Positions 3,702-19,198 of a stretch of DNA of 64,000 nucleotides are shown here, in pieces; position 1 is the stretch's first letter, and the number at the start of each line of letters is the position of its first letter. Made by a program: the position numbers and the translations under genes. The notes beneath the pieces are model-generated. The model saw only the letters and a list, made by a program, of their open reading frames with translations. It did no database searches and was not told where the DNA came from. The stretch lies in assembly GCA_011389985.1 (NCBI GenBank), contig JAABTH010000001.1, positions 4,158 to 68,157 on the forward strand, read 5' to 3'. Source of the DNA: Bacillota bacterium. Its GTDB lineage: Bacteria; Bacillota; Dethiobacteria; DTU022.

Positions 3702-3714
3702 GAGTGTGATCATT

Positions 3715-4352: not shown

Positions 4353-4379
4353 AACACAGAGGGACGGTTCTTATGTGTT
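4353..4379 (+). repeat. REP-like palindromic element copy A (AACACAGAGGGACGGTTCTTATGTGTT)
   Basis: Member of a 6-copy family with consensus AACACAGGGGGACGGTTCTTTTGTGTT. A 6-bp stem AACACA/TGTGTT encloses a ~15-nt loop. Sits 10 nt after the vapC stop. Confidence 0.6.
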
Positions 4380-4860
4380 ATTAATTATGTAATTCTACAT
4401 AAACCAGCCTTCTGCAGGCACCAGGGACACAATAGTTATTTCTACGAGTTTCTGTCTGAGGTCATGCCCGCTTGGGAGGAAAAGCCCTTAAACTGAAGAA
4501 TTACAGATTATCGTTTTAAATGGCTAATCCTTGAGGATCAGAGGTTGAATGCCCCTGCCAAAAGAGATGTAGCACATTTTGCTGCCACCAATTTTAATTG
4601 ATTTTTCCTGCAGGTTGCCTAGCAATCTATTAAACATTTTCCATCACCCTTTAATATTTTGTAATGAGCACAGTTATAGTTAATTCGTTATTCTATTTGT
4701 ACGTTTTGCCTGCGTTTAAACGATCTTTAGAATTCAGGTGGGCCTCGTAAAAGTTTTGAAACCACTAGATGGGAAAAATGGTAAGATAGATTAAATGGGT
4801 GGTGCCGGCAGATGCCATCATCCGGTTGAAGAGCGAGGCGGGTTTTTTTGAAAGCAGTAG

Positions 4861-5520
4861 TTGTCAGGGGAAATAGAGGTAAAAAGCGCATTAAACAAGC
4901 TGAAGCGTACAGTGCCATACGGATGGGATCTTAATATCTACCGGGGTTGCCAGCACGGATGTCGTTACTGCTACACCCTCTATTCTCACCAATACCTTGG
5001 AACGGAGCAGTTTTCCAGAGAAATATTTGTGAAAAACAACATTGCCGAAAAGCTTGAAAAAGAGCTACAGGCACCGGGCTGGAAAGGCGACGTAATTAAC
5101 ATCGGCGGTGTAACCGACAGCTACCAACCGGCAGAGGCCGAGTACAGGCTGATGCCGCAAATACTGAAACTACTGACTAAATATAAAAACCCGGCCATTA
5201 TTTCGACTAAATCAGACCTGGTTTTAAGGGATTATGATCTAATTGATGAGTTGTCGAGGCTTACCTATATCAATATAGCGGCAACAATCACCACCGTTGA
5301 TGAGGCGGTTAGAGAAAAAACCGAGCCGAAAGCCGCAACTACTGCAAAGCGTTTTTCCTTGCTGAAATAGTTTAAAAAACAAATGCTTCCACCGGCTTGC
5401 ATTTAATGCCGGTTATACCTTTACTGACCGATTCTGCAGAAAATATAATTATTGTTGACTATCAATTCGTTTTATTCTCCCAGTGGAAACTCATGTAAAA
5501 GTTTTTCCAGTTCGTTAAGC
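4861..5520 (+). pseudogene. SplB-like radical SAM protein (spore-photoproduct-lyase / DNA repair photolyase family), frameshifted and truncated
   Basis: N-terminal [31 protein letters not shown] carries the CxxxCxxC radical-SAM motif. The ORF stops after 169 aa. The conserved continuation MPVIPLLTDSAEN appears in another frame at ~5407 and is followed quickly by a stop, so the gene is frameshifted and degenerate. Confidence 0.6.
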
Positions 5521-5695
5521 TTAAAAGTTTGGGCCCTGTCTGAGTTAGGCAGTTGAAAAGCGATACTGTCATCTTCGCAATAAACCCAAAGTCAAAAGCT
5601 GAGGTGGCTGTTTCGATCATTTGACTGAAACGGAAGCTATCCAAGGGTAACAGCGGATTGGCCAGGATGTAGTCGATGTTTTGAGTAATAAAAAA

Positions 5696-6418
5696 CTATT
5701 TTAATAGCAATGATGCAATAATTGTCATACTTACCATCACTACATTGCTGATACTATGCATGATCATCGGGTAATAGACACTCCCGGATTTTTCATAGCA
5801 GTCCCCATAAAATATCCCCAGGGTGATTGATAAAAAAACCTGGTAAAGGCTAAAGTCAGCTTCAAAGGGAGCAAATGAAAACCTGACATGCGCCAAACCA
5901 AATATGATGGCCGCAATGATATTTGCATAACTTAACTTCTTCTTTAAAAATCTGCCCCGTATAACAAGCGCCAGCATTGTGATGGCAAAAGCTCTGAAAA
6001 TTAGTTCTTCAGACGGGCCCGACAACACTAGCTGGAAGCTTAATTGCCCTAAGATGTTAGTAAAAGTTAGTGGGTATTGAAATGGCTGGAACGTATTGGT
6101 CAGAAAGGCGATTATATGAGAAGCTAAAGAGCCTGCAGTAAAAATCAGGGCAAATAATAGAACATAATTCCTGCCCACTGCTTTATTGCCCCAACTAAAG
6201 CCAAAGTTTAGCGGCTTAAATTTGCTTATTACAGCAATAATGAGTAAGAAAATAAAAGCTTGCACCAGGTGATGAACTGCAATCCAGGCATATGATCCGT
6301 CCGGGTCGATTTTATGATAATTAACTAGATCGGCAATATTACCTGATAACCTGGGCACTCCCAGAAGGATAACTGCCAGGAACAAGATCCAGAGCGATTT
6401 CTTCAATATATGGCCCAT
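5696..6418 (-). CDS. CPBP-family intramembrane glutamic endopeptidase (CAAX protease / Abi-like)
   Basis: Multi-TM protein with EELIFR (motif 1, EExxxR), FGLAH (motif 2) and HSISN (motif 3). Start chosen at the internal ATG (MGHILKK), which has a GAGGTG RBS. Confidence 0.75.
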   Translation of the reverse strand: MGHILKKSLWILFLAVILLGVPRLSGNIADLVNYHKIDPDGSYAWIAVHHLVQAFIFLLIIAVISKFKPLNFGFSWGNKAVGRNYVLLFALIFTAGSLASHIIAFLTNTFQPFQYPLTFTNILGQLSFQLVLSGPSEELIFRAFAITMLALVIRGRFLKKKLSYANIIAAIIFGLAHVRFSFAPFEADFSLYQVFLSITLGIFYGDCYEKSGSVYYPMIMHSISNVVMVSMTIIASLLLK

Positions 6419-6561
6419 ATATGCACCTCGTATCCTGATATCAGTAGTTTTCAATTAAGCATTCTTAAAAGGTTGTTGTGTTTTAGATCTTATCAAATTA
6501 CTGCCTGCCACATAAGATAATATATATGAAGCAGTCATGTCAATGCTTGTTTCGATCTTAG

Positions 6562-6632
6562 AACACAAGGGGACTGTTTAAAGTGTTGCAATAAATTGAT
6601 TAAGTCATCTATGCTGGTTACGAGACAAGAGG
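6562..6632 (+). repeat. extended REP-like element copy B (degenerate core plus a ~45-nt shared tail)
   Basis: Core AACACAAGGGGACTGTTTAAAGTGTT followed by GCAATAAATTGATTAAGTCATCTATGCTGGTTACGAGACAAGAGG. The tail is ~85% identical to the tail of copy C. Lies downstream of the encapsulin gene. Confidence 0.6.
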
Positions 6633-6963
6633 TAATCGAACAACAGTCTTTGGCATATAGGATGATCCTATGCTAAGAAGGGCAAAGTAAGAGACCAGTT
6701 CAGGCATTTACCATCTTGCGATAATTACCCTTAATTATTTCCAGGGCTGCAAATTTAAATATTACATTTTTATCATTTATCAGCAGATAAGTGACAAATC
6801 CGCGGCCGCTGTTGGTCTCAGGATGTATATCCGGAAACAGTGACGAAAAATCAGGGCCTGCCATGACAACCTGGTTAAACTTAAAATAGATTTATTATAA
6901 ATGAGTGTAAATTCGCCAGCATAGAAAAAGGCTGCCGGCATATTGCCAGCAGCCCTATCTCCT

Positions 6964-7755
6964 TTAGATAGTAAATTTAACTATCAGGGCCGGGTCGAGA
7001 ACCCTGAAAGTGAAAGATTCTGTAATATGCAGCCTGACTTCCTTTGCATCATGGTCCTGATAGCCGATCGAAAAATCGATGCCCAGGTTTAATTCCAGGT
7101 CTTCGTGATCAAAAGGCAATAGTAAGGCGCCTTCTAAGGCGGGTGAGAACAGAATATCACCTTCGATTAATTCTGTTATCTGCTTGTAGAGAGGGTAAGC
7201 CCCAGCTTCATGGTTGATTTGATGCCAAACTTTTTCTCCGGCAACCAGGGAGAGCGGCGTAGGTACAAAGTTATCCTGTAGAGTAAGAACACCATCTGTG
7301 AGAGCATCCATTATTGAAGAAGCGTCCTGTCCGAATTCCAGGTTCTTGTCGGCCATTTCAACTAGACCTTCAATATTACCTTTTGCATAGCCATTAAATA
7401 TAGCATTCTCTTCAAACAGGGCTGCTTTCCGGGTTGCTTCTTCCAGCGGACCCAGATCTACATCCCGGGCGCCCCGGGTTAAATTGTCCATCTCCCAGCG
7501 GTTAAGGACAAATTCACATCTGGTTTCAACTAAAGGCTGGACTTTATACAGGCCAGTACAGAGCTCTTCCGATTCTTTCTCCAGAACCGTCAGCCGCCCT
7601 TCAGGTATTACAGTATGGTTCAATCCCTTGGGGCCTTCCACATGTACGATTTTACGGGCGGTAAGAATGCTTTTCAAAACTTCTTTTGCTCTTTCATCTA
7701 TCCCATGCCAGGCTTCTTCCGTTAAAGGAGCCAGTTGGCGTTTAAGAAAATCCAT
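6964..7755 (-). CDS. family 1 encapsulin nanocompartment shell protein (HK97 fold, linocin M18-like)
   Basis: 263 aa. MDFLKRQLAPLTEEAWHGIDERAKEVLKS...DNLTRGARDVDLGPLEEATRKAALFEE...SIGYQDHDAKEVRLHITESFTFRVLDP aligns along its length with T. maritima-type encapsulin ([30 protein letters not shown]...[26 protein letters not shown]). Confidence 0.9.
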   Translation of the reverse strand: MDFLKRQLAPLTEEAWHGIDERAKEVLKSILTARKIVHVEGPKGLNHTVIPEGRLTVLEKESEELCTGLYKVQPLVETRCEFVLNRWEMDNLTRGARDVDLGPLEEATRKAALFEENAIFNGYAKGNIEGLVEMADKNLEFGQDASSIMDALTDGVLTLQDNFVPTPLSLVAGEKVWHQINHEAGAYPLYKQITELIEGDILFSPALEGALLLPFDHEDLELNLGIDFSIGYQDHDAKEVRLHITESFTFRVLDPALIVKFTI

Positions 7756-7769
7756 TGCAATTCCTCCTC

Positions 7770-8123
7770 TTATTTTTTCATGTTGCCCAGGTTCAGGCTC
7801 CCCGGGGTAACGGGGTTTTGATCATTGTCTTCATTGACCTCTTCAGAGTGGCCGATGGGCCCTTCTGTAAAAAGATTTTCTTGAAGCTCTTTCTCCCAAC
7901 CGGGCATATTTCTTCTAAGCCATTCCAAAACCATGCAGACATGCTCAATCTCTTCGTCGCGGTTATGCTTCAGAACTTCTTTAAGGGTATCATCATCGGT
8001 GGTGTCTATTCTCTGGTGATACCAGATTACCGCTTCTACTTCTTCCTTGAGGCTGTGAAGGGCACGAACGAAATCTCTTGCTTCAGTGCTCAGCTGTTCT
8101 GTTGGTTCTATATAGTTGGACAC
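7770..8123 (-). CDS. encapsulated ferritin-like protein (EncFtn) with C-terminal encapsulin targeting peptide
   Basis: 117 aa. EARDFVRALHSLKEEVEAVIWYHQRI...EEIEHVCMVLEWL carries an ExxH di-iron ferritin-like motif. The C-terminus TPGSLNLGNMKK fits the encapsulin cargo-loading peptide consensus (GSLxhGxhK). Sits immediately upstream of the shell gene. Confidence 0.8.
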   Translation of the reverse strand: MSNYIEPTEQLSTEARDFVRALHSLKEEVEAVIWYHQRIDTTDDDTLKEVLKHNRDEEIEHVCMVLEWLRRNMPGWEKELQENLFTEGPIGHSEEVNEDNDQNPVTPGSLNLGNMKK

Positions 8124-8225
8124 TTGAGTACCTCCTTATGTAAGTGATTTATACTCATATAATAAGCATATATCAGCAGTGTAATTAGGTCAAGCTAAAG
8201 GCAGAATATAGAGAATATTTTGGCC
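8124..8225 (-). promoter_or_regulatory. putative sigma-A promoter and RBS region of the EncFtn-encapsulin operon
   Basis: On the minus strand: TTGACC-N17-TATGCT, then AGGAGG, then the GTG start of EncFtn. Confidence 0.3.
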
Positions 8226-8235
8226 ATACTTTAAC

Positions 8236-8306
8236 AACACAGGGGGACGGTTCTTTTGTGTTGCAATAAATTAATAAAGCCATCTATGCTGGTTATGAGA
8301 TAAGGA
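8236..8306 (+). repeat. extended REP-like element copy C (core plus ~45-nt shared tail)
   Basis: Core AACACAGGGGGACGGTTCTTTTGTGTT followed by GCAATAAATTAATAAAGCCATCTATGCTGGTTATGAGATAAGGAG. Direct-repeat partner of copy B, upstream of the encapsulin operon promoter. Confidence 0.6.
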
Positions 8307-8711
8307 GTAGAGCTTTGAGTGATTGCACCATATAACCCTATAAGACATTATACAAACTCGCATTGCTGCCCAAAAGAGAATAAGTGCCTCGAAAATAGCG
8401 AACGGAAAAAGTTCTGCAGGCATCAGATAATCGAATAAAAGCCAGCGGGAAGCAACAAATCTGATTATAGTGAAGGCAAAGGTAGCGGACAATTGGTATT
8501 GATGCAAGTACAGTTCCGCCAGCAGCTAAAACACTTGTAAAAGCTTTATTACTCGTCAGAGAAACATCCTTGCACCTGCACGTTTATCAAGGTTTAAAAA
8601 CCATTATACTCTTTTTCATTTCCCGGCTTCCTAACTAAGGTTTAATCACTTTAATTCCGGGGATACCAAAATATCTTTGAATAGATCTAATATGTACAAG
8701 AGAATCGGATT

Positions 8712-9545
8712 TTAATAATCGCTTTCTGTTTGTGGTTTCATATAAATTAGATCACTGCTATTAACTTCAGGATGGTGATAGCGCATGACCCTAATCTTTC
8801 CTGTGCCAAGCTGAATCGCCTCCTGGGGGCACCACTGAATACAGGCAAAGCAGCTCAAGCAGTTGTTACCCCAGACCGGTTGACTATTATTTATGGTAAC
8901 ATTGTTAACCGGGCAGACTTTGCTGCAGGTTTCGCAACCCGAGCAGCGATCATTAACAGTAAAGGCCAGTGATTCCCATCCGTGCCTGACGGCATGCAGC
9001 AAAAGCGAGCTTACTGGCTTGATCACTTTAAAAAAGAGGCCGCGTAAGAGTAAAACTGAAATCAAAGTTTCAATTTCGACAGGTATAATTTGACGGTTGT
9101 TAATTACCGCTGCTATCTTGCTAACTCGAATTTTCCCCTCAGTAAGAGCTTTTTCCCTGTCAGCATTAGAAAAGCTGATATTGCCGACGGCATTATGAGG
9201 CATCATCACCGCAAAACCGGCATGTATTTTATAGCCCTTTACAGCCAGTTCATGCTGCAATTTCTCCAAACACTTCAAAGGACTAATACCATAGGTGCAG
9301 AGTGCAAAGAGGTATTTATTTTCCAACCCTTCAAATTTCGTGATAAACTCTTCTATAATCTTAGGCGTTTTAAAATCATAAACGGGAAAAACCAAGCCTA
9401 TAGCTTCGGCTTGGCTATTAATCGTTTTAGCTTTAATTAAAGGGGCCAATGGTTTAAGCCGTGCGCCGGTTATTAAGGCAAGATCTCTGGCTAAAGCAAG
9501 CGAATTGCCTGTTCCTGAAAACCAGTATATCTCCATGTTGCTCAA
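8712..9545 (-). CDS. EFR1-family ferredoxin (flavodoxin-like N-domain fused to a 2x[4Fe-4S] ferredoxin domain)
   Basis: N-terminus MEIYWFSGTGNS matches the flavodoxin-like nucleotide loop. The C-terminus carries CSGCETCSKVCP and CLSCFACIQWCP ferredoxin motifs. Confidence 0.55.
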   Translation of the reverse strand: MSNMEIYWFSGTGNSLALARDLALITGARLKPLAPLIKAKTINSQAEAIGLVFPVYDFKTPKIIEEFITKFEGLENKYLFALCTYGISPLKCLEKLQHELAVKGYKIHAGFAVMMPHNAVGNISFSNADREKALTEGKIRVSKIAAVINNRQIIPVEIETLISVLLLRGLFFKVIKPVSSLLLHAVRHGWESLAFTVNDRCSGCETCSKVCPVNNVTINNSQPVWGNNCLSCFACIQWCPQEAIQLGTGKIRVMRYHHPEVNSSDLIYMKPQTESDY

Positions 9546-9782
9546 AGGTAGTCATCCTTTCGTCGAGCCAGTTTATTCAGGTAAGCTTGATTTAATGCCC
9601 AGATAAGCAGGGCAAAGAGGGCAGCGGCAGAAATACCCTGGATTATTCGGACAACTTGTTTCTTGCTGGATAAGGGTGCGAAATTTAAGTTGCCTGATAT
9701 AAAGGCTTTGCTTAACACCAAGAGTTTATATAGTGACAGAATAAAAATAGTATGACATATCTTTAAGTCTCCGGTTTAATCA

Positions 9783-11453
9783 TTACACTTCTATATCCCG
9801 GTATCGGTTTGGAGCGATTCTGATTAGGATAAGATAAAGCATCGCTCCAATTGCCAGCGAAACAGCGGCAACGGCAAGGTACACAGCAAGGTCTGCACCG
9901 GATACCTGGTAAACGAGCCAACCGGCCAAAAATAATAGGGTATAGATCACTCCACCGGCAAGCATAGCTAAAAGAACATTAATATTCTGTTTGATCGCTT
10001 TTTGGGGGTTATCCCAGTTCAGGTAGGGCCTGAGCAGATCGATCAGCAAACTGACAACAATAGCCGGTAGGCCGGCTAGCAGGCCGATTACGATAACCAA
10101 GAGCAGTTCTGCCAGCCCCAGGGGCAGGAGAACAAAGCTGACCAGCAAAACAAGAGGGATACTTAATGCAGACATCATGTAGCCGTATAATATTTTACCG
10201 TTAACCTGCTCTTTAGCGCTGACGGGGATAACCTGGGAAATCCAGAATTGACTGCCTTCACGCGAGTAGGAACTAGAAGCAGCAGGTGTGAATAGTGCCA
10301 TAACTGCAATAAAGCCAGCCAGTGCGCTAACCTGAACCAGGCGGGGAATTTCGCTGCGTAGCGAGTCGATCAAAGTGGTCAGGGCTCCACCGCTGATCAG
10401 TGGAACAACCAGAATCACCGGGACAATTACCAGGATCGCAAGGCTATTAAATAGATAAACAGGGGTGCGCAAAAGATATTTTATTTCACGCATGGCAATT
10501 GCTACTGCCGGTGTTGATGAGGAGTTTAGCTTTTGCGCCATTACATCCTTAGAAAGAGCTTTGCCCTTGCTGACTTCATTACCACCAATTAGCCCGCGGT
10601 AAAAAAGCTTCTGCCCGGCCATAAATACAAGCGCAGCTCCAGCCAGGTTCAGCAGCAGGAAATAGAGGAACCAGATTAATTTCGCGGGGCCTGCTGATGA
10701 CAGGGCGCGTACCGCAAGTAAGGCGGGCGGGTAGATACGGGTTATGTGCATCAGCAGCCCCTCACTTTTTAGCAGCAGGTCCTCGATGTAGGCTATTTCT
10801 TCTCCCTCGGGGATGCCGGTCAGGAAGTAGTTAAGCAGGAAGATGAGCAGCAAAAAGAAGACCATGCCGATTATTCTTAAGGTGTCGCGTTTTCTGCTTA
10901 GATTTGTTAGGCTCATCAACGCAAGGGTAAAAAGTGTGGCCACTCCTAAGGGAATGATTGGTGTGAGCAGGAACACCAGTAGAGCAATGATCCAGTAAAG
11001 AAGACCTGCTCCGCTGCCAATACCAAAAACCCAGATTGCCGGAATCAGAAATGGCGCTATGGTCAGGTATTCATAAACAATGATTAGGGCAAATTTTGAA
11101 CCCATAATCGTGCCCGGCTGCAGGGGCAGGGGTACCAGGATGCTTAGATCTCTGGAAAAGAAAAAGACAGAAAGAACAGCAGTCAGGCCAAAAAAAAGCA
11201 CCAACATGGAAGAAATCATTAAACCTGTTGCCAGCACAATTTCAGGCTGACCAAGTTCAGCTGTAATTTGGTAAGCTCCCTGAAGCAGCCTCAGATAGAG
11301 GAAGAATATAGGGCCCAGGCTGAAGAGAACCAGGGCGACGATACCAACTGCACCGAGAAATTTTTTCAAATCATGCTTCATGTACCAACGCAGGGCTGAA
11401 AGCCCAAGATTTATTCTTAACTGGATCAGAATCAATTTAAAAATGTTCATCAT
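9783..11453 (-). CDS. ABC transporter permease (large polytopic membrane subunit, ABC-2/exporter-like)
   Basis: 556-aa hydrophobic protein with >10 predicted TM helices. The downstream ATPase gene's stop overlaps its start codon (ATGA). Confidence 0.55.
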   Translation of the reverse strand: MMNIFKLILIQLRINLGLSALRWYMKHDLKKFLGAVGIVALVLFSLGPIFFLYLRLLQGAYQITAELGQPEIVLATGLMISSMLVLFFGLTAVLSVFFFSRDLSILVPLPLQPGTIMGSKFALIIVYEYLTIAPFLIPAIWVFGIGSGAGLLYWIIALLVFLLTPIIPLGVATLFTLALMSLTNLSRKRDTLRIIGMVFFLLLIFLLNYFLTGIPEGEEIAYIEDLLLKSEGLLMHITRIYPPALLAVRALSSAGPAKLIWFLYFLLLNLAGAALVFMAGQKLFYRGLIGGNEVSKGKALSKDVMAQKLNSSSTPAVAIAMREIKYLLRTPVYLFNSLAILVIVPVILVVPLISGGALTTLIDSLRSEIPRLVQVSALAGFIAVMALFTPAASSSYSREGSQFWISQVIPVSAKEQVNGKILYGYMMSALSIPLVLLVSFVLLPLGLAELLLVIVIGLLAGLPAIVVSLLIDLLRPYLNWDNPQKAIKQNINVLLAMLAGGVIYTLLFLAGWLVYQVSGADLAVYLAVAAVSLAIGAMLYLILIRIAPNRYRDIEV

Positions 11454-12172
11454 TCAGTCAACTCCAGGAAGATATTTTCAAGGTTTTCCCGGTTGGCGGC
11501 CATTGTCTTAAGCTCATCCATAGTGCCGCAGGCAATAAGGCGGCCCTTATTTATTATGCCAATCCGGTCGCATAACTTTTCAGCCACTTCGAGAACGTGG
11601 GTGGAGAAAAAGACTGTTTTGCCTGCATTACAGTGTTCGCGCATGTATTTTTTCAGGTTGTTCGATGAACGGGGATCAAGCCCAACCATCGGTTCATCAA
11701 GAATGAACAGGTCGGGTTCATGAAGCATGGCCCCGACTAAAACAATTTTTTGCCGCATTCCGTGGGAATATGATTGGATCAGGTCGCCTACAGCATCGCT
11801 CAGCGAAAAGAGATCAAGCAGATAGGTCAGCCTTTCGCGGCGCAGCTCCGCAGGAACAGAATAAACATCGCCCATAAAGTTCAAGTATTCAATTCCGGTC
11901 AGCTTTTCGTAAACTTCCGGGCTGTCGGGAACGAAACTGATTGCCCTTTTAACCTCCAGCGGGTTATCCATTATTGATATTCCATTAATGGCAACTGTTC
12001 CACTGTCCGGTTTGAGCAGCCCCACCATCATCTTGATCGTGGTTGTTTTTCCGGCCCCGTTAGGGCCCAGAAAACCGAAGATTTCACCATTATTAACGGT
12101 CAGGTTTAAATCATCGACAGCCTTGACCGTTCCCTTGTTGTAGCTTTTGGAAAGATTATTGATTACAATCAT
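11450..12172 (-). CDS. ABC transporter ATP-binding protein
   Basis: Walker A GPNGAGKTT, Q-loop, signature YSHGMRQK, Walker B LFILDEP, H-loop. 240 aa. Confidence 0.85.
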   Translation of the reverse strand: MIVINNLSKSYNKGTVKAVDDLNLTVNNGEIFGFLGPNGAGKTTTIKMMVGLLKPDSGTVAINGISIMDNPLEVKRAISFVPDSPEVYEKLTGIEYLNFMGDVYSVPAELRRERLTYLLDLFSLSDAVGDLIQSYSHGMRQKIVLVGAMLHEPDLFILDEPMVGLDPRSSNNLKKYMREHCNAGKTVFFSTHVLEVAEKLCDRIGIINKGRLIACGTMDELKTMAANRENLENIFLELTE

Positions 12173-12202
12173 ATTGGTACCTCCACAAATTTCATTTGAC
12201 GA

Positions 12203-12604
12203 TTAATAGAAATAAAGTGTGGCTGCCAGAATAATCAGGCCGATTGCCGAAGCGGCGATATCAATCAAGATTACACCACGGCCCCGATCTTTACGCAGCA
12301 TAGCCGCAACTGTCTTCTGGAATTTTTGGTAATTTAGCAGCAAAATCAGAGCTTTAACCGCGGTCAGAGAAAATAGGACGGTCAGGTAAATAGAGTTTGT
12401 AATATCTAAGGTAAAGTGCATATACCAGGTCAGAGCAACTAAGGCCAGGCCGAGCAGGGCAATAACCACTATGTAGGGTGGGCGTTTTTCTGAGTAAAAT
12501 TTTTCGATAAAGCTATTTTCATCCCAGGGCAGAATGTGCATGTAAAAAGGTTTAAGAAAGGCTGCCAAACCGAAGATTATGCCGAGTACTTTAAAGTAGT
12601 TCAT
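12203..12604 (-). CDS. membrane protein of unknown function (paralog 1 of a tandem pair)
   Basis: 133 aa with 4 predicted TM helices. Shares MNYF(K/Q)VL.IIFGL and ~35% identity with the adjacent ORF 12626..13027. Confidence 0.5.
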   Translation of the reverse strand: MNYFKVLGIIFGLAAFLKPFYMHILPWDENSFIEKFYSEKRPPYIVVIALLGLALVALTWYMHFTLDITNSIYLTVLFSLTAVKALILLLNYQKFQKTVAAMLRKDRGRGVILIDIAASAIGLIILAATLYFY

Positions 12605-12625
12605 AACTTTTACCTCCCAGTAAAA

Positions 12626-13027
12626 TTAGTAAAGTAGAAATCCGATTAAAAGTGATGCTATTCCCAAGATTAGAGCAAATAAGTTGATCAGGGCCAGGGT
12701 TTTGCGATCTTTTTCCAGCACCCTCACTACAAAGGCCCGGAATTGTTTGTAGTTGAAAAGCACTTGTGACATTTTAACCAAAGTCAGGGTCACAAACAGG
12801 GTGATAACAATGGAATAGGGAATATCTGCAGTGAAGTGCTTATACCAGGTGAAGGCCACCAGGCCAAGACCGAAAAGCCCGATATACCAGACCCAGCGGG
12901 GTTGTTTTTCCGTGTAAGCAGTATTTAGCTCAAAAGTGTTCCATTGCTTCGGGAAAAACTGAATCGCCGGTCGGGTTAGGATCAGGATCAAACCAAAAAT
13001 AATGCTTAAAACCTGAAAGTAGTTCAT
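12626..13027 (-). CDS. membrane protein of unknown function (paralog 2 of a tandem pair)
   Basis: 133 aa with the same architecture as 12203..12604. Its start overlaps the tetR stop (ATGA). Confidence 0.5.
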   Translation of the reverse strand: MNYFQVLSIIFGLILILTRPAIQFFPKQWNTFELNTAYTEKQPRWVWYIGLFGLGLVAFTWYKHFTADIPYSIVITLFVTLTLVKMSQVLFNYKQFRAFVVRVLEKDRKTLALINLFALILGIASLLIGFLLY

Positions 13028-13683
13028 TTTAAATCCTCCTTGTTGCTGTTTTTTTGCAAGCCTTTTTTCAGGAATGCTGACAGCTTGAGAGTCTCCTCTT
13101 TTAAAGCCCTGCTGTCATCAGCCATGAACTCTTCAAAGTCAGGATAGAGATCCATGAAATGCAACAGGTTAAATTTTAAAATACGAATGACAAAATCCCT
13201 GTCGAAATAATCCCTGATTTCACCCGCTTTAATCGCTTCATCAACCATGGCTATTACGTAATCTTCAAAGGCTCTGTTTAGATCTCCAAACAGTCTTTCT
13301 TTAAGCGGCCCTTCAGCCATGTTTTGCAGGTGAACGCTCAGCTGGTGCTGACGGTAATGCTGCATGGCAAAATCGACGGAGGCCAGCATTTGAAATTCCA
13401 GATTTTCAAAGAAGTTCATTTCTTCAAACGGTTTGCCCAATTCGGCCAGGGCCTGCTTTAGAAAGATCGCTTTCATCTTCAGGATCTGGTCGATCAGGTA
13501 TAAGTAGAGGTCTTCCTTGTTGGCAAAATAATGGTACATGCTGCCCTTCGAAATGCCGGCCCTGGCAATGATGTTGTTAAGAGACGCCGCTTCAAAATCC
13601 TTTTCGGCATACTCGTCGAGCGCGGCATCAATGATCCTGTTCTGTTCCTCCGTTGTTAAATTGAGAAAACCTTGTTTGACCAA
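13024..13683 (-). CDS. TetR/AcrR-family transcriptional regulator
   Basis: The N-terminal HTH (LNNIIARAGISKGSMYHYFANKEDLY) is a canonical TetR_N domain. TTG start with a GGAGG RBS. First gene of the operon tetR / 2x membrane protein / ABC ATPase / permease. Confidence 0.8.
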   Translation of the reverse strand: MVKQGFLNLTTEEQNRIIDAALDEYAEKDFEAASLNNIIARAGISKGSMYHYFANKEDLYLYLIDQILKMKAIFLKQALAELGKPFEEMNFFENLEFQMLASVDFAMQHYRQHQLSVHLQNMAEGPLKERLFGDLNRAFEDYVIAMVDEAIKAGEIRDYFDRDFVIRILKFNLLHFMDLYPDFEEFMADDSRALKEETLKLSAFLKKGLQKNSNKEDLK

Positions 13684-13695
13684 TAGATTACCTCC

Positions 13696-13727
13696 TTAGA
13701 CCAGGCAGTCTAGACCGCCTGGTCTAA
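13696..13727. promoter_or_regulatory. 32-nt near-perfect palindrome TTAGACCAGGC-N10-GCCTGGTCTAA; candidate TetR operator, or RBS-sequestering hairpin
   Basis: 11-bp perfect inverted-repeat arms, seen directly. On the coding (minus) strand it lies between a TTGCTT-N17-TATCCT promoter-like sequence and the tetR start, and one arm abuts the GGAGG Shine-Dalgarno. Confidence 0.5.
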
Positions 13728-14131
13728 GGATAACATTTCACTTCCAAAAAAGCAATAGCTTTTTAAAAAAATATCGTACGAAATATATTGCCATAGATTG
13801 CTACAATTGGGATAACACGAGGTGATGGTTCTGAGTGACCTCCTTAAGATGACAGAAATTAAGTACGGTTAAAGCAGACACATTTTTCATTAATCTATTA
13901 TAGAGAGGCTTGAAGGCAGACTCTCAAACGCTATTTGTGGTTTTCAATTGTATTAAATGTATACCAACCTTTTAATATAGAAATTCCAGTTTTTAGAAAG
14001 CATCTAAATGGTATTTTGCATCCGTTAAGATTAAAAATGAGAAATCTCATAATTTTGACAGCTTCAGCAAAATTTTGATATGATCATAAAAAGATAAAAG
14101 TTCACAATACAATGCCTGGGAGGTGAATATA

Positions 14132-14380
14132 TTGGGAATCCTGGCTTGGATTATTGTTGGAGCTATCGCTGGTCTGCTCGCTAACCTAATTATTGGTGGC
14201 GGGTTTGGATTGATTGGTAATATCCTGCTTGGAATAGTCGGAGCTCTGGTAGGCGGTTGGCTTTCCACCTCTATTTTGAGTTTGCCTTATGATGTTACTG
14301 GTATTAACTTAATTTCAATTCTGGTGGCAACTGGAGGAGCTGTTGTTGTATTATTTGTAGTTAATTTATTAAGACGATAA
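14132..14380 (+). CDS. GlsB/YeaQ/YmgE-family stress-response membrane protein (transglycosylase-associated protein)
   Basis: LGILAWIIVGAIAGLLANLIIGGGFGLIGNILLGIVGALVGGW matches the family signature. GGGAGG RBS 9 nt before the TTG start. A TTGACA-N18-TATGAT promoter sits at ~14056. Confidence 0.7.
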   Translation: MGILAWIIVGAIAGLLANLIIGGGFGLIGNILLGIVGALVGGWLSTSILSLPYDVTGINLISILVATGGAVVVLFVVNLLRR

Positions 14381-14414
14381 GTATAAATAGAGATGAGTGA
14401 AAAGAGAGGTAAAA

Positions 14415-14585
14415 ATGATAGCTAAAATATTAGGAGCTACAAAAAATTTGGGGATGCTGTTGCTTGGTATCTGGCTGATACTAAACGGGCTTTTGCAGTT
14501 GTTCGATTTTGCAATTCCCGGAGGAGGAACCATCATGGCCCTACTGGCCCTCGCAGCCGGAGTTTTAATTTTACTTGGCAAGTAG
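14415..14585 (+). CDS. small two-TM membrane protein (hypothetical)
   Basis: MIAKILGATKNLGMLLLGIWLILNGLLQLFDFAIPGGGTIMALLALAAGVLILLGK. GAGAGGT RBS before the ATG. Confidence 0.4.
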   Translation: MIAKILGATKNLGMLLLGIWLILNGLLQLFDFAIPGGGTIMALLALAAGVLILLGK

Positions 14586-14688
14586 AGTCTTTAATCAGTA
14601 GAGCCTTGAATCAATAAACGTAAAAAAGTGAGGATTCTATATGATAGAAGTTGATGACCAAAGTTAGGCAGGAAAGAAGAGTGCATAA

Positions 14689-15951
14689 TTGAGAATCTCT
14701 TATTTTTTATACGTTTTATTAGTTATATTGACACTATCTGGTAGTGCCTGTAACGGGTTGGAAGAAAGTACTCTGGAGACTGAGCCGGATAATAATATTA
14801 CCGGGGAAATAGATCCAGAACCTGAACGGGGAGCAGATAGTTTAGATGATTTAACTGTTGAAGAGCTGCCTGTTGCTGACCAAATTGAAAACCGGTTTGA
14901 ACCGGAATTTGTTTTTCAGGGAGCGGAATTTATCCGACCCTTACTGCTGACAGAAGCCGGAGATGAAAGCGGACGATTATTTGTAGTTGAACAGGCCGGG
15001 TTAATCTATGTAATGGCGGGAATAGACACACAGGAAAAAGTGCTTTTCCTTGATATTAGTGATTCGATTGACGACAGTGGTAATGAAATGGGACTTTTAG
15101 GGTTGGCTTTTCACCCTGATTATGTTAATAATGGCTATTTTTTTGTTAACTACACAGACAGAGAGGGAACAGTGGTAGCACGTTTTACGTCTGTAGGAAG
15201 TGATGCAAATCCAGAAAGTCATGAGACTGTTCTTAGTTTTAACCAACCATATAGCAATCATAATGGAGGACATATTGAATTCGGGCCGGATGGATTTCTT
15301 TACATAGCTACAGGCGATGGAGGTAGCGGTGGTGATCCACAGGGACATGCGCAGAATCGCCAGACTCTTTATGGCAATATCCTGCGCATTGATATTGATA
15401 ATCAGGGACCGCTGGGTAGCTATTCTATCCCGCCGGATAACCCCTTTGTTGGGAATCGTGATGATTTTCGTGAAGAAATATATGCCTATGGTTTGAGAAA
15501 TCCCTGGCGTTTCAGCTTTGATCCATTAACCGGTCAGCTATGGGCAGCTGATGTGGGGCAAAATGCAGTAGAAGAAATAAATGTTATTGAAAAGGGTAAA
15601 AATTATGGTTGGAATATCATGGAAGGAAGCCAGTGTTATGATCCGCCCAATAATTGCGACACTGCCGGTCTTGAAATGCCTGTATTTGAGTACTCCCATT
15701 CCCTTGGGCGTTCGATAACCGGCGGTTATGTATACCGGGGAACGGAACATCCATTACTAAAAGGCGCATATATATATGCTGATTTTATTACTGGCCTGAT
15801 CTGGGCTTTATGGTACCAAGATGGAGAAGTAAAAGCAAATTATGTTCTTGCTGATACTGGGTTAAACATATCTTCATTTGGTGTGGGTGAGCATAATGAA
15901 CTTTATTTCACTGCTTTCGATGGTTATGTATACAAATTAGTTTATAACTAA
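14689..15951 (+). CDS. PQQ-dependent sugar dehydrogenase (soluble glucose/sorbosone dehydrogenase family) lipoprotein
   Basis: GLLGLAFHPDY, HNGGHIEFGPDGFLYIATGDGG and YAYGLRNPWRFSFD motifs of the GSDH beta-propeller. N-terminal signal with lipobox LSGSAC. Confidence 0.8.
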   Translation: MRISYFLYVLLVILTLSGSACNGLEESTLETEPDNNITGEIDPEPERGADSLDDLTVEELPVADQIENRFEPEFVFQGAEFIRPLLLTEAGDESGRLFVVEQAGLIYVMAGIDTQEKVLFLDISDSIDDSGNEMGLLGLAFHPDYVNNGYFFVNYTDREGTVVARFTSVGSDANPESHETVLSFNQPYSNHNGGHIEFGPDGFLYIATGDGGSGGDPQGHAQNRQTLYGNILRIDIDNQGPLGSYSIPPDNPFVGNRDDFREEIYAYGLRNPWRFSFDPLTGQLWAADVGQNAVEEINVIEKGKNYGWNIMEGSQCYDPPNNCDTAGLEMPVFEYSHSLGRSITGGYVYRGTEHPLLKGAYIYADFITGLIWALWYQDGEVKANYVLADTGLNISSFGVGEHNELYFTAFDGYVYKLVYN

Positions 15952-16358
15952 ACATGCCACAGAAACATTTATATAGTAAATATGCATTTATGAAAGCGAA
16001 GATGGCTGACTAACATCTTCAAACAGTGATATAAAGAAACATTCGTCCTTTTAGTGGAAGTATTGAAAAGAAAAGTCAGGAGAAACTGCCTCAAAACAGA
16101 TAGTTATTTTTATTGGTTTAACTTTGGAATATTGTCCTCAAAACAAATGATAAGTTTAGATTTTGCTAGTTCAAATGATGCAAACGTGGTTATAACTTCA
16201 TAAGATCTGGTATTTCAAAACCTGATTCCCATCGATGATTTCGAGAGTTATAAAAAAAACTTTACAAAGATGAAATCATTTGCGATAATCGTTATTAGTT
16301 TTATATGTAGTGGAATAGAACAAACAGGTAACTGGATATTGTAAAGGAGACCGATATA

Positions 16359-16520
16359 ATGAAGGCAAAAGAAAGTAACAGCCAAACTACTTCAAACAAG
16401 AAAGGGATGACAAGAATAGGAGCCACCAATTATTATCCCTGCACAAACATTGCTGTCAGGCATATTTGTATGCAACATTGCCGAAAATGCTTTTTTGAAA
16501 TTGCATATTGCCAAAAATAA
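16359..16520 (+). CDS. 53-aa Cys-rich small protein: polar N-terminal half, C-terminal half with 5 Cys (YYPCTNIAVRHICMQHCRKCFFEIAYCQK)
   Basis: Strong RBS AAAGGAG 8 nt before the ATG. Isolated in a ~1 kb region with no other ORF >60 aa. Below the ORF-track length cutoff. No similarity recognised. Confidence 0.35.
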   Translation: MKAKESNSQTTSNKKGMTRIGATNYYPCTNIAVRHICMQHCRKCFFEIAYCQK

Positions 16521-16855
16521 TTTAGTACTAGCAATTTATAGTTTCATGCCAATACAGATTTTATTATAATTACGGTTCTGGTCTTGACAGAAGTGATTTC
16601 GCTGTTGGATGTAGCCGTTTTATGATGATTACTTCGCCAGTGGTTTAATCGCACCGGGTTCACTTGTTTCAGAAGTGCGCAGAGCTCTGAGTTCAGGGTT
16701 TAGGCAGGGCTTTGACTCAGGTTAAATACGGCCGGGATGTAGCAACTAATAGTAACAATGCATTGAATATGTTTTAATTTAGTTTAGGCAAAGTGCATTT
16801 GGTAGTTAACTATATAAAATAATTTACCAACAAAAAAAGTGTGATCGTAAATTAA

Positions 16856-16907
16856 GAACAAGGGATGGGAATCAATAATGATCGCCATCCCTTGTTCTCT
16901 TTGTTTG
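16856..16907. terminator. strong intrinsic terminator hairpin (13-bp perfect stem GAACAAGGGATGG/CCATCCCTTGTTC, 16-nt loop) with a T-rich tail; likely bidirectional
   Basis: Seen directly. Followed on the plus strand by TCTTTGTTTG. On the minus strand it lies just downstream of the LapA-like gene's stop at 16943. Confidence 0.6.
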
Positions 16908-16942
16908 AAAACTTTATTTATGTTTACTACGTCTCTTGAAGG

Positions 16943-17464
16943 TTAATCTCTTTCGCTGTTCTCTTCGCGTTCTTTTTGCTGCTTTAATAATTCCTCTTCT
17001 AATCTTTTCTTTTCAGCTTCTAACTCGGTTTGTTCTTGCACTGCGGATTCTTCACGTTCTTTTTGTTGTCTGTTTAGCTCTTCTTCAAGTTTTTTCTTTT
17101 CAGCTTCTAACTCTGCCTGCGCTTTTGCAGCAGCTTCTTCACGTTCTTTCTGCATTTTGTTTAACTCGTTTTCAAGCTTTTTGTTTTCATTCTCTAGAGT
17201 TTTTATTTGTTGTTGCAGCTCTTTTTTGAGACCGCGTTCAGCCTGAGAGCCCATGTACTTTTGAATACTGCGAAATATACCAAAAAAGATCATAACCAGA
17301 ACTCCAGCAGCAGCAGAACCAAGGATCACCATAGACAAGGTGAGGTTTGACTGGTCTAAAAGATAGTTTAATGTGACAGCTTCGGTATTGATTATAGCTA
17401 CAACAGCGATAACTATTGCAAGAATTAAAGCTAACGCAAGAAATATCATTCTCATTTTTATCAT
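16943..17464 (-). CDS. LapA-family (DUF1049) membrane protein with a C-terminal repetitive coiled-coil region
   Basis: N-terminal double-TM LapA-like domain. The C-terminus carries ~30-aa repeats (ELEAEKKKLEEELNRQQKEREE...) encoded by ~90-nt tandem DNA repeats. Confidence 0.6.
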   Translation of the reverse strand: MIKMRMIFLALALILAIVIAVVAIINTEAVTLNYLLDQSNLTLSMVILGSAAAGVLVMIFFGIFRSIQKYMGSQAERGLKKELQQQIKTLENENKKLENELNKMQKEREEAAAKAQAELEAEKKKLEEELNRQQKEREESAVQEQTELEAEKKRLEEELLKQQKEREENSERD

Positions 17465-17533
17465 TCCTTTCTATTTATCTGTGGTCATATAGTAATTATA
17501 GTATATCACAAAATACATGTTTAACACAGCAGT

Positions 17534-17560
17534 AACACAGGGGGACGGTTCTTTTGTGTT
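17534..17560 (+). repeat. REP-like element copy D (exact consensus AACACAGGGGGACGGTTCTTTTGTGTT)
   Basis: 44 nt upstream of the RAYT start. A partial duplicate stub AACACAG lies at 17523-17529. Confidence 0.65.
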
Positions 17561-17603
17561 GCTTTCTGCTTTCTTTTTTGTTATTGTTAGTCAGGGTGAT
17601 CAC

Positions 17604-18359
17604 ATGCCAAGAAACGTAAGGGTAAAAAGCAGTTCCGGTATATACCATATAATCCTCAGGGGGATCAATAAACAACGTATTTTCGAAGATGATGAAGATA
17701 GCCGTTATTTTCTGAAAAAACTAAAAACCTATAAAGAAATAAGCGAGTATGAAGTATATGCTTACTGCTTGATGAATAATCATGTTCATCTTTTGCTAAA
17801 AGAAGGTGAAGAAAGTGTAGGGACAGTATTTCGTAGGATAGGGGCAAGCTATGTCTACTGGTATAATCAGAAATATAACAGAACCGGTCATCTATTTCAG
17901 GACCGTTTTAGAAGTGAACCGGTAGAAACTGATCAGTATTTTCTTACAGTTATGAGATACATACATCAGAATCCGATTAAAGCTGGAATTGTAGAGAAGA
18001 TAGAGGACTATCTGTGGAGTAGTTACCGGGAGTATAGCCAAAAACCGGTGATATGTGATACTAAATTTGTTTTAAATATGTTCTCTAAAGTTTCGAAAGA
18101 TGCTTTAGACTTATGGGTTAAGTTTATTAATGAAAAGAACAATGACCAATGTTTGGAGTATGATGGTGGAAGATTGAATGATGATGAGGCCACAGAACTG
18201 ATTAAAACTGTTGCCAAAATAAAAACCCCTACAGATATTCAGGCTTATGAAAAGCAAAAAAGGAATATGTTAATTAAATTGCTAAAGCAAAAGGGTTTAT
18301 CTATTAGGCAAATTGAAAGATTAACCGGTATAAGCTTTGGGATTATTAGGGGAGCATAA
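17604..18359 (+). CDS. REP-associated tyrosine transposase (RAYT; IS200/IS605-like Y1 HUH transposase with C-terminal HTH)
   Basis: IYHIILRGINKQRIF...YEVYAYCLMNNHVHLLL carries the HuH motif (HVH) of Y1 transposases, and there is a C-terminal HTH (LSIRQIERLTGISFGIIRGA). Flanked by inverted REP copies D and E. Start placed at the internal ATG, because the track ORF runs through the REP. Confidence 0.75.
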   Translation: MPRNVRVKSSSGIYHIILRGINKQRIFEDDEDSRYFLKKLKTYKEISEYEVYAYCLMNNHVHLLLKEGEESVGTVFRRIGASYVYWYNQKYNRTGHLFQDRFRSEPVETDQYFLTVMRYIHQNPIKAGIVEKIEDYLWSSYREYSQKPVICDTKFVLNMFSKVSKDALDLWVKFINEKNNDQCLEYDGGRLNDDEATELIKTVAKIKTPTDIQAYEKQKRNMLIKLLKQKGLSIRQIERLTGISFGIIRGA

Positions 18360-18383
18360 ATGATGACGGTTGCATTGTATTTC

Positions 18384-18410
18384 AACACAAAAGAACCGTC
18401 CCTCTGTGTT
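18384..18410 (-). repeat. REP-like element copy E (reverse orientation: AACACAAAAGAACCGTCCCTCTGTGTT)
   Basis: 25 nt downstream of the RAYT stop. One mismatch to the reverse complement of the consensus. Confidence 0.65.
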
Positions 18411-18443
18411 CTCCCTGTAGTTTGAACGAAGGGATATTTAACA

Positions 18444-19067
18444 TTGAGCAAAAAGAATAGTAGTTTATTATTCAATTCAATAGCGCCTGTATATGGATTA
18501 TTTTATGATGCGCAGAAAAAGCGGTTTGCTGAAGTTATAGAAGGGGTAGAGAAAGAGCTGGATTTGTCATCTTTTGAAACTATCATTGATATTGGATGCG
18601 GAACAGGCGCGTTATGTTCAGTTTTAAATGATAAGGGTCTGTCAGTGACCGGTATCGACCCGGCCGATAAGATGTTAGAAATAGCCAGAAATAAACAGGA
18701 GAACAAAGATATTAGTTTTATTCAGGCCGATGTTCTTGAAGGGTTGCCTTTTGATGACAAAAGTTTTGATATTGCCATCGCCAGTTATGTGGCTCATGGA
18801 TTAAAGGCTGAGGAAAGAAAGCGAATGTATGCTGAAATGAGTCGTGTTACAAATCAGTGGGTGGTAATATATGATTATAATGATGAAAGGTCATTATTGA
18901 TTACAATTATTGAATGGTTGGAAGGCGGTGACTACTTCCACTTCATTAAATATGCCGAACCTGAAATGAGAGATTGTGTTTCAGAGATGAAAAGCTGTTT
19001 TTCGGAGGTAAAAGTAATCAATGTGGATACAAGAGCAGCCTGGTATATCTGTAAACCTTATGCGTGA
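18444..19067 (+). CDS. class I SAM-dependent methyltransferase
   Basis: Motif I IIDIGCGTGALCSVL, an acidic motif II, and a post-I D/E pattern. 207 aa. Lies between REP copies E and F. Confidence 0.75.
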   Translation: MSKKNSSLLFNSIAPVYGLFYDAQKKRFAEVIEGVEKELDLSSFETIIDIGCGTGALCSVLNDKGLSVTGIDPADKMLEIARNKQENKDISFIQADVLEGLPFDDKSFDIAIASYVAHGLKAEERKRMYAEMSRVTNQWVVIYDYNDERSLLITIIEWLEGGDYFHFIKYAEPEMRDCVSEMKSCFSEVKVINVDTRAAWYICKPYA

Positions 19068-19133
19068 TGGAATCTCAGGAAGCATAAAAGATCACAAAAT
19101 CGCCCACCTGTGCAATTTGCCCGGTGTCAATTT

Positions 19134-19160
19134 AACACAAAAGAACCGTCCCCTTGTGTT
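19134..19160 (-). repeat. REP-like element copy F (reverse orientation: AACACAAAAGAACCGTCCCCTTGTGTT)
   Basis: Followed by a partial duplicate (GCCCTTGTGTT) at ~19161-19171. Confidence 0.65.
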
Positions 19161-19198
19161 GCCCTTGTGTTATGTTTTATGAAATGAGGTCTTAGTGT

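Follow-up and report, generated by a model that had tools for sequence, protein, structure and literature searches.

A RAYT-class Y1 HUH transposase gene flanked by inverted DNA hairpins with a conserved loop in a Bacillota genome

A 64,000-nucleotide (nt) stretch of a contig from a Bacillota bacterium of the Dethiobacteria (the window) contains a gene for a Y1 HUH protein of the RAYT class (REP-associated tyrosine transposase, where REP denotes a repetitive extragenic palindrome), flanked by inverted copies of a DNA hairpin and accompanied by further copies of the same hairpin. The locus is likely a REPtron-like unit of the TIRYT/TIRtron type, in which a single-copy, fixed RAYT-class transposase is paired with its cognate DNA hairpins. 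The anatomy of the locus, the conservation, covariation and strand asymmetry of the hairpins, their gene-less derivatives, their bias towards intergenic DNA close to the gene, and the occurrence of the gene as a single copy are direct observations. An earlier note on this DNA had described a six-copy REP-like palindrome family around a RAYT gene in a Gram-positive anaerobe. Its interpretation, a RAYT-class gene with cognate flanking hairpins, is right in kind, and its claim to novelty is overstated: the gene is already named by NCBI annotation models, and the class of flanking repeats was published in 2013. The present analysis contributes the finding that the 'TIRs' (terminal inverted repeats) of this large branch are hairpins with covarying stems and a loop that is conserved across phyla. 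The attribution to a Gram-positive anaerobe is reasonable, because the window encodes a LepA with 97% identity to that of Dethiobacteria/Bacillota metagenome-assembled genomes, which points to an uncultured anaerobic member of the Bacillota.

Searching the window for the 27-mer hairpin with up to three mismatches returns five matches, at 4353-4379(+), 8236-8262(+), 17534-17560(+), 18384-18410(-) and 19134-19160(-), against an expectation of 0.00 in dinucleotide shuffles. A covariance model trained on 111 unrelated hairpin instances from other genomes scores these five copies at 43-47 bits (E <= 1e-9), and the runner-up site in the 64 kb reaches 11.8 bits. The model does not detect the remaining site in the window, copy B at 6562 (AACACAAGGGGACTGTT-TAAAGTGTT), which is degenerate, with a 1-nt deletion and a broken stem, and is counted as a relic only because it shares a 52-nt 3' flank (87% identity) with copy C. 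The family of six is therefore better described as five intact copies and one decayed relic. All of them fall inside 15 kb of the window; copies A, B, C and D are all on the '+' strand, and the covariance model finds no copy in the 45 kb downstream of copy F. The features of the locus are as follows.

4353..4379, + strand: hairpin copy A (AACACAGAGGGACGGTTCTTATGTGTT), solo, with 2 mismatches to the consensus (43.1 bits), starting 9 nt past the vapC stop codon
6562..6634, + strand: relic copy B and its 3' flank; hairpin part 6562-6587, flank in common with copy C 6583-6634
8236..8309, + strand: hairpin copy C and the shared 3' flank; 8236-8262 is the exact consensus (45.7 bits), flank 8258-8309
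17522..17533, + strand: stub before copy D, repeating part of the 5' stem arm in direct orientation (TAACACAGCAGT)
17534..17560, + strand: hairpin copy D, the gene-proximal upstream (left) copy, with a T-rich tract after it
17559..17587, + strand: promoter-like element (TTGCTT, 17 nt, TATTGT), its -35 hexamer overlapping the 3' arm of hairpin D
17594-17599, + strand: GGGTGA, resembling a ribosome-binding site, upstream of the RAYT ATG
17604..18359, + strand: RAYT/TIRYT-class Y1 HUH gene, 251 amino acids, with HVH at residues 60-62 and Tyr119 in YIHQNP
18384..18418, - strand: hairpin copy E (18384-18410; 46.5 bits), gene-proximal downstream and inverted relative to D, with a stub at 18411-18418
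18444..19067, + strand: class I S-adenosylmethionine (SAM) methyltransferase gene between copies E and F, syntenic with the RAYT gene in a related species
19134..19172, - strand: hairpin copy F (19134-19160; 47.4 bits) with a stub at 19161-19172

Copies A and C are solo, B is decayed, D and E form the pair that flanks the gene, and F is a further copy to the right, past the methyltransferase gene. Copy D ends 43 nt upstream of the RAYT ATG at 17604, and copy E starts 24 nt past the RAYT stop at 18359; together with the 9 nt that separate copy A from vapC, these spacings agree to within 1 nt with those first given (44, 25 and 10 nt), and the protein has 251 residues where 252 had been counted. 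The palindrome stubs noticed earlier do exist, and they extend copies D and F to a 39-nt inverted repeat, 87% complementary, around the gene plus the methyltransferase gene. Co-oriented copies B and C bracket an EncFtn/encapsulin operon, and co-oriented copies E and F bracket the SAM methyltransferase gene, both pairs being in direct orientation as had been observed. The flanks of copies B and C resemble only the last ~45 nt beside copy E, a stretch that corresponds to the 3' end region of the RAYT gene.

The gene product is a RAYT-class Y1 HUH protein, in agreement with the earlier assignment, and not an IS200/IS605 TnpA. It matches the Pfam domain Y1_Tnp at 55.2 bits (cutoff 23) and narrowly passes the NCBIfam equivalog model NF047646, REP_Tyr_transpos, at 81.7 bits (cutoff 80). 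Residues H60, H62, Y119 and N123 are invariant in alignments of 13 and of 41 sequences, and P124 is invariant among the 13 and conserved to at least 90% among the 41. Because the HUH and Tyr residues are invariant across the family, nuclease activity is argued to be retained. The catalytic context Y119-IHQ-N123-P124 corresponds to Y-x3-NP, the signature of class 2 (TnpAREP-like) proteins, as opposed to the Y-x3-Q of class 1, which comprises IS200/IS605 (PMC6006769). A phmmer search of PDB sequences yields a sole match, 4ER8, the E. coli TnpAREP, and the AlphaFold2 model of the protein (mean pLDDT 88.5) has 4ER8_A as its best Foldseek match (E 2.6e-8, target TM 0.70), above the TnpA proteins of IS608 and ISDra2. 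A WSS motif follows the catalytic helix, and an extra helical domain occupies the C-terminus (residues ~150-251, modelled with confidence over 153-250). This domain has a helix-turn-helix (HTH)-like end, GLSIRQIERLTGIS, and a GLSIRQIERLTG segment near the C-terminus is conserved among homologues. No TnpB-sized open reading frame (ORF) adjoins the gene, and low-stringency tblastn finds neither a second gene copy nor extra gene fragments in the 64-kb window. The alternative that the earlier note had set against its own reading, an ordinary IS200/IS605 TnpA, does not agree with the Y-x3-NP signature, the inverted ends and the lack of a nearby tnpB.

The family is large, with at least 6,108 homologues. 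Of these, 120 are listed (59-100% identity); each one that has a name is assigned to Bacillota, and some homologues are already annotated as 'REP element-mobilizing transposase RayT' or 'REP-associated tyrosine transposase'. The view that such systems are described almost entirely from Proteobacteria is outdated given this number of homologues, the Group 1 RAYTs of Clostridia, which have flanking 16-mers in ~12 copies (Bertels et al. 2017, PMC5581495), and the published description of TIRYTs (PMC3733652; PMC6006769).

The loop of the hairpin in the window, GGGGACGGTTC, holds a GGGGAC box. In an alignment of 111 distinct instances from other genomes, the core GGGACGGTTC is invariant and the ACA...TGT around it, forming the inner stem, is nearly so. 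The outer stem of 3-4 pairs is variable yet complementary, with GC, CG, AU and UA pairs all common. Stem positions are paired in 83% of cells versus 70% in shuffles, the covariation score is 0.43 versus 0.20, and 0 of 500 shuffles reach the observed value; as a control, sliding the partner column abolishes the covariation signal. The covariation of the outer stem therefore indicates that the hairpin is real, and it backs the 6-bp stem proposed from the window; the conserved part is the loop. No GT[AG]G (GTAG/GTGG) is conserved at the foot of the hairpin, where the bases next to the stem vary, and the repeat does not qualify as a canonical REP. The 'REP-like palindrome' thus survives as a genuine hairpin repeat, and its likeness to REP does not extend to the foot or to the conserved part, which is the loop. 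The two strands fold unequally, at -11 to -13.6 kcal/mol for the G-rich strand and -3.5 to -7 kcal/mol for the complementary strand (-13.6 versus -3.5 kcal/mol for copy D), because G.T wobble pairs allow the G-rich strand to reach a ~14-bp stem that the complementary strand cannot form.

The core pattern is present in at least 120 stretches of GTDB representative genomes. Among the matches listed, the genomes named include Lachnospiraceae, Oscillospiraceae, Syntrophomonadaceae, Pelotomaculum, Alkaliphilus and Bacillus, and the core is also found in Prevotella/Bacteroidota and in Coriobacteriia. Since the same loop recurs across many Bacillota, Bacteroidota and Coriobacteriia, it does not represent a genome-specific REP family. 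The cores show an intergenic bias, 45% of them lying in long open frames that hold 87.5% of all bases. No Rfam family matches the window at gathering thresholds, the hits around the locus being only noise, and the core 10-mer occurs in the searchable literature only as primer coincidences. Judged by eye, the hairpin is neither an integron attC site (it has no R'/R'' cores and its outer stems vary) nor a DnaA box (nothing like TTATNCACA is present), and a CRISPR repeat was likewise rejected by eye from the hairpin sequences.

Repeats in this position have been described before. Di Nocera et al. 2013 (PMC3733652) reported RAYT-like genes flanked by inverted repeats without GTAG, which they termed TIRYTs, the units being TIRtrons; a GGGGWSAS box at much the same distance from the gene is common to many of these repeats, and dimers and clusters occur in some families. 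Quentin et al. 2018 (PMC6006769) placed 20 of 26 TIRYTs in TnpAY1 subclass 2.1, in which neither automatic nor manual search found REP-like sequences, and in which subgroup 2.1.2 has C-terminal Bac_DnaA_C, HTH_23 or HTH_28-like domains. In a search of the literature on TIRYT, TIRtron, TnpAY1 and TnpAREP, TIRYT is mentioned only in these two papers, and no listed title concerns experiments with the subclass. The box in the window, GGGGACGG, matches GGGGWSAS at 7 of 8 positions, and that of relatives, GGGGACAG, matches at all 8. A Y1 homologue of 30% identity on the Sporomusa termitida plasmid pSPTER (L240, 27760-28740) has plain inverted repeats, GGGGTCAGGCC/GGCCTGACCCC, which form no hairpin and whose box, GGGGTCAG, is also an 8/8 match. 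By virtue of its flanking inverted repeats with a GGGGWSAS-type box, the locus is, on the evidence of its letters, a member of the known TIRYT/TIRtron class, and it probably belongs to TnpAY1 subclass 2.1.2.

The inverted flanking copies that had been taken as the hallmark of a RAYT locus are conserved among homologues. Homologues of 41-73% identity are encoded at the 80 metagenomic loci sampled; in 26 of these loci the GGGACGGTTC core stands on both sides of the gene, '+' before the ATG (at 44-165 nt, mostly 50-66) and '-' after the stop (at 7-84 nt, mostly 8-35), and further loci, many of them on truncated contigs, have it on one side. The stems are equal on both sides of a gene and differ between loci (ACACA, GTGACA, AAGCA, GGAGACA, GGATCA and others). 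Most other loci contain related hairpins with loops GGGGACGGGGTT or GGGGACAGGTAC, or the fully palindromic GGGGACTGTCCCC. A GGGAC-box repeat is present in the flanks of 56 of the 71 full-length loci, and across loci the GGGGWSAS-type box is mostly found 58-66 nt upstream of the ATG. The type of loop tracks the relatedness of the proteins, being shared by 48 of 56 nearest neighbours versus 38% by chance. Partial 5' copies like the stubs of the window precede full hairpins in many other loci.

The upstream hairpin is also placed consistently with respect to the promoter. In homologous loci, its 3' arm runs at the same offset into a TTGACA -35 hexamer, which is followed by a 17-nt spacer, a TAnnnT -10 hexamer and a GAGGTG ribosome-binding site. 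Rumen metagenome loci L187, L191, L194, L196 and L198 encode RAYT homologues with Bacteroidota-type TAnnTTTG promoter motifs. GGGACGGTTC hairpins lie 80-95 nt upstream in L191 and L194, L187 has a variant GGGGACTGTCCCC hairpin, and no hairpin is seen upstream in L196 and L198. The hairpins retained beside Bacteroidota-type promoters in L187, L191 and L194 therefore appear to have outlasted a change of promoter type.

Hairpin copies are also found without the gene. Close core pairs in GTDB loci comprise 50 '+-' pairs, 1 '-+' pair and 40 tandem pairs, '+-' being the orientation of the gene-flanking pair. Tandem partial copies consist of the 5' arm and the loop, often before a complete hairpin, and the window stubs are small versions of them. 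A 2.63-Mb replicon of Acetoanaerobium noterae (NZ_CP154629.1, filed as a plasmid) contains one homologue and ~32 BLAST-detectable hairpin places. In the 300 kb of this replicon that were read (loci L218-L220), all 34 cores sit at 341,965-423,185, an 81-kb stretch ending at the gene, and no cores occur in the next 50 kb past the gene or in two distant 50-kb samples. In at least eight doublets of ~107 nt, the left and right hairpins enclose the final ~26 codons of the gene; the doublets share one deletion junction, and 7 of 8 point the same way as the gene. They are derivatives that have lost internal sequence and multiplied, comparable to REPINs or to miniature inverted-repeat transposable elements.

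Other genomes show copies near the gene as well. In Metallumcola ferriviriculae (CP121694; L224, 62-9938), eight hairpins of one orientation precede the homologue within 10 kb, and one lies downstream. The eight separate small toxin-antitoxin-type modules (ParE, CopG, MNT, DUF4160/DUF2442, DUF4258) in a layout that resembles a cassette array, with '+' hairpins among '-' strand genes. Paramaledivibacter has four co-oriented hairpins upstream of the gene. Copies are local and upstream of the gene in three genomes, those of the window, A. noterae and Metallumcola. HepT/MNT and Hol_Tox modules adjoin the homologue in C. aceticum, and a HepT/MNT module does so in Maledivibacter. GC skew is positive both in the window and in the A. 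noterae region, and their solo copies are on the G-rich strand. Targeting of a replication strand, of the kind seen with IS608, was considered and rejected: for 104 solo events in unrelated genomes, the strand is independent of GC skew (52 vs 52).

Several of these features would suit hairpins that serve the host as cis-regulatory elements, whether terminators or insulators on the G-rich strand or operators, with the Y1 protein a domesticated regulator that no longer moves DNA. Copy D is flagged as terminator-like, since a stem of the G-rich strand, 14-15 bp long, is followed by a T-rich tract, and TGTGTCGTTTTTT-type tails end many hairpin copies. Moreover, the A. noterae copies follow co-oriented operons, 0-30 nt past their stop codons, the hairpin next to the gene overlaps the -35, and the gene is single-copy and fixed. 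This explanation is nevertheless unlikely. Copies B and C are antisense to the adjoining transcription units in the window, as '+' hairpins stand amid '-' genes in Metallumcola; the catalytic HUH and Tyr residues are invariant family-wide; and both the multiplied doublets with a single deletion junction and the tandem partial copies need a copying process. Regulatory and mobilising roles are not mutually exclusive.

The history of the gene differs from that of an insertion sequence. Identical proteins occur in 13 and in 24 contigs, with one fixed context each. The gene order LapA-RAYT-methyltransferase is kept in a related species at 86% amino acid identity (85% nt identity over the region), and more distant relatives (74-78%) are located elsewhere. 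The motif is present in 1 of 2.9 million viral contigs. Among 72,556 plasmid records, 33 contain a homologue, in every case with less than 60% identity; three plasmid records have full-length matches, two of these being replicons of 0.9 and 2.6 Mb, and the window hairpin has no match among plasmids. The family is large, single-copy, chromosomally fixed ('domesticated') and rare on plasmids and phages. This is the profile of single-copy, vertically inherited genes described for RAYTs (PMC5581495), unlike that of an insertion sequence.

An autonomous IS200/IS605-type element, in which the gene and two hairpin ends move together and the other copies are scars or solo ends, is therefore very improbable, although parts of the evidence lean towards it. 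The Y1_Tnp domain and the subterminal hairpins are as in IS200/IS608, and copies D and F form their 39-nt inverted repeat around the gene plus the methyltransferase gene. At the related-species locus L202, a second hairpin is followed by a decayed 5' fragment of the gene, so whole units are occasionally duplicated, and the paired elements at L086 point the same way. These traits have to be set against a class 2 signature in place of Y-x3-Q, ends that are inverted, unlike the same-strand ends of IS608, a single gene copy in the window and likewise in the 2.63-Mb A. noterae replicon, identical proteins that always keep the same genomic context, a family that is seldom carried on plasmids and almost never seen in phage contigs, and the lack of a tnpB nearby.

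The local, upstream, co-oriented clustering of copies is the most interesting remaining feature, and it raises the idea of cargo shuffling, in which same-strand hairpin pairs act like IS608 ends and the enzyme excises and reinserts the DNA between them, leaving an integron-like array 5' of its own gene. Such shuffling is highly doubtful, and there is an equally slim chance that the hairpins are the missing DNA substrates of the HTH-bearing Y1 subclass (2.1.2/TIRYT) with same-strand pairs mobilising the accessory modules between them. If this were true, toxin-antitoxin modules, an encapsulin operon and methyltransferases would form an integron-like array run by a single-strand HUH enzyme. The idea has several observations in its favour: the bracketing of accessory cargo by B/C (encapsulin operon) and E/F (methyltransferase); the common '+' orientation of all four upstream copies, with none in the 45 kb downstream; the eight co-oriented hairpins between toxin-antitoxin-type modules in Metallumcola and the four in Paramaledivibacter; and the 34 A. 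noterae cores in the 81-kb stretch ending at the gene. In addition, synteny with L202 ends at window position 19151, inside hairpin F and between the G's of the GGGG box (L202 7530-7548); in L202, GGACGGTTCTTTTGTGTT is retained and the 5' arm of the hairpin is missing. Such an endpoint is compatible with breakage or recombination at the hairpin; only one case of this was seen, and the truncation points of partial copies in other genomes vary.

The encapsulin operon itself argues against cargo shuffling. The EncFtn and family-1 encapsulin genes form a 1.29-kb block (6923-8219) that is present in three different contexts in related genomes, and the block common to the window and two related genomes (L234 and L237) excludes hairpins B and C. 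In L234 it lies ~750 nt from another RAYT homologue, and in L237 no hairpin is near it. Hairpin-bounded mobility of this cassette, the one examined, was rejected because the conserved block stops short of both hairpins, and no cassette was seen bounded by hairpins in two contexts. Further, what separates the hairpins in A. noterae is ordinary operons, spanning 0.1-20 kb, and many of the sites are doublets; solo copies in the broad sample are not co-oriented with their neighbours (18 same vs 25 opposite); and the upstream excess within +/-4-kb flanks is weak and not significant (9 vs 3).

For the REPtron-like TIRYT/TIRtron unit, a mechanism can be proposed by analogy. As TnpAREP and IS608 TnpA do, the enzyme would bind the G-rich strand of the hairpin as single-stranded DNA. 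It would recognise the GGGGAC box in the loop, and may cut and rejoin nearby. Such cutting and rejoining could generate and spread singlets, doublets and tandem partial copies, as a counterpart of REPINs. Occupancy of the upstream copy, through the C-terminal HTH-like domain or through hairpin binding, might interfere with the overlapping -35 and lead to autoregulation. Finally, the folded G-rich strand with its T tract could act as a terminator-like shield of the gene from upstream transcription, as in IS200.

A number of observations weigh against the proposed unit. First, the system may be inactive here, in view of the decayed copy B in the window and, in the related species (L202), a decayed copy E and a truncated copy F. 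Second, no filled/empty site pair was found, so movement of copies here is without direct support; the description of the system as 'active-looking' is not borne out. Third, the margin for NF047646 is only 1.7 bits, and the C-terminal HTH has only sub-threshold Pfam matches (HTH_19, E 0.0024; HTH_3, 0.032; HTH_28, 0.084). Fourth, the promoter in the window is weak, with 3/6 and 4/6 matches that fall below the consensus-scan threshold. Lastly, co-inheritance of the gene with its flanks could alone explain why loop type tracks phylogeny.

These data define a candidate DNA partner for a Y1 subclass that had no reported REP-like structure, namely a hairpin with a covarying stem and a GGGGAC-box loop. 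The definition also includes its fixed position at the -35, its strand asymmetry, the gene-less doublets and the pile-up of copies beside the gene. From this definition, specific oligonucleotides and mutants follow with which the subclass can be tested in vitro for the first time.

Several neighbouring genes deserve brief mention. A MazE/AbrB-type antitoxin and a PIN-domain (VapC-like) toxin form a pair at 3670-4343, directly upstream of hairpin A. On its other side, ~480 nt of non-coding DNA separate hairpin A from a 169-aa radical-SAM ORF (4861-5370), which covers ~130 of 166 profile positions and is probably truncated. Directly beyond hairpin F, a GNAT acetyltransferase is fused to a Cys-rich DUF3795 domain (19199-20167). 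The coiled-coil gene at 16943-17464(-) contains two tandem 87-nt units (16962-17135, 72% identical) that, from the translation, encode a repeated E/K-rich segment; in the near-identical contig L121, the same gene has a LapA_dom Pfam match. Two adjacent paralogous membrane ORFs of 133 aa (12203-13027) lie beside an ABC transporter, by which a 219-aa ORF is taken as a candidate TetR-type regulator. In the region 58368-59810 / 60510-62222, the score of an MttB-superfamily methyltransferase falls short of the cutoff set for the trimethylamine model, and a PrdR-like sigma-54 regulator adjoins.

Comparison with known systems places the locus among several that share part of its anatomy. Integron attC sites are likewise imperfect, strand-asymmetric hairpins, and in some of the genomes described here, as in integron arrays, same-orientation sites lie between accessory or toxin-antitoxin modules beside a recombinase gene. 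However, integrons use a tyrosine recombinase where this system has an HUH Y1 protein, the R'/R'' cores are absent here, and the spacing here is irregular. The IS200/IS605 elements (IS200, IS608, ISDra2) share the Y1 HUH fold and subterminal hairpins. The left-end hairpin of IS200 is a terminator in front of the transposase promoter, and hairpin D has a similar layout, a T-tract hairpin upstream of the promoter. In contrast, IS200/IS605 elements are class 1 (Y-x3-Q), have same-strand ends, are multi-copy and mobile, and often carry tnpB, none of which applies here.

The E. coli REPtron (TnpAREP/RayT/YafM, 4ER8) has the HUH motif with Y-x3-NP, inverted palindromic flanks and a single-copy chromosomal gene, as here, and its TnpAREP is the closest solved structure. 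It differs in that the E. coli REP has a GT[AG]G foot, which the window hairpin lacks, its candidate for recognition being in the loop. The window protein is also ~100 aa longer than TnpAREP, with its helical/HTH-like C-terminal domain, and the copies in this family number tens near the gene versus hundreds dispersed in E. coli. The REPIN-RAYT systems of Pseudomonas (Bertels & Rainey 2011) similarly combine a single-copy, vertically inherited gene with gene-less inverted doublets oriented as the gene-flanking pair. Unlike REPINs, the A. noterae doublets keep a piece of the gene 3' end, the copies are local and not genome-wide, and the repeat is shared across phyla instead of being lineage-specific.

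TIRtrons resemble the locus in having a Y1 gene at a roughly constant distance from GTAG-less inverted repeats with a GGGG[AT][CG]A[CG] box, and in repeats that occur as dimers and clusters at moderate copy number. The TIRYT subclass likewise has the WSS motif after the catalytic helix, and its HTH-like C-terminal extension may correspond to the helical C-terminal domain of the window protein. The TIRtron papers (PMC3733652, PMC6006769) do not describe the range over Bacillota, Bacteroidota and Coriobacteriia or the near-invariant 11-nt loop. In contrast to TIRtrons, the repeats of the window family form genuine hairpins whose stems covary and whose loop carries the box.

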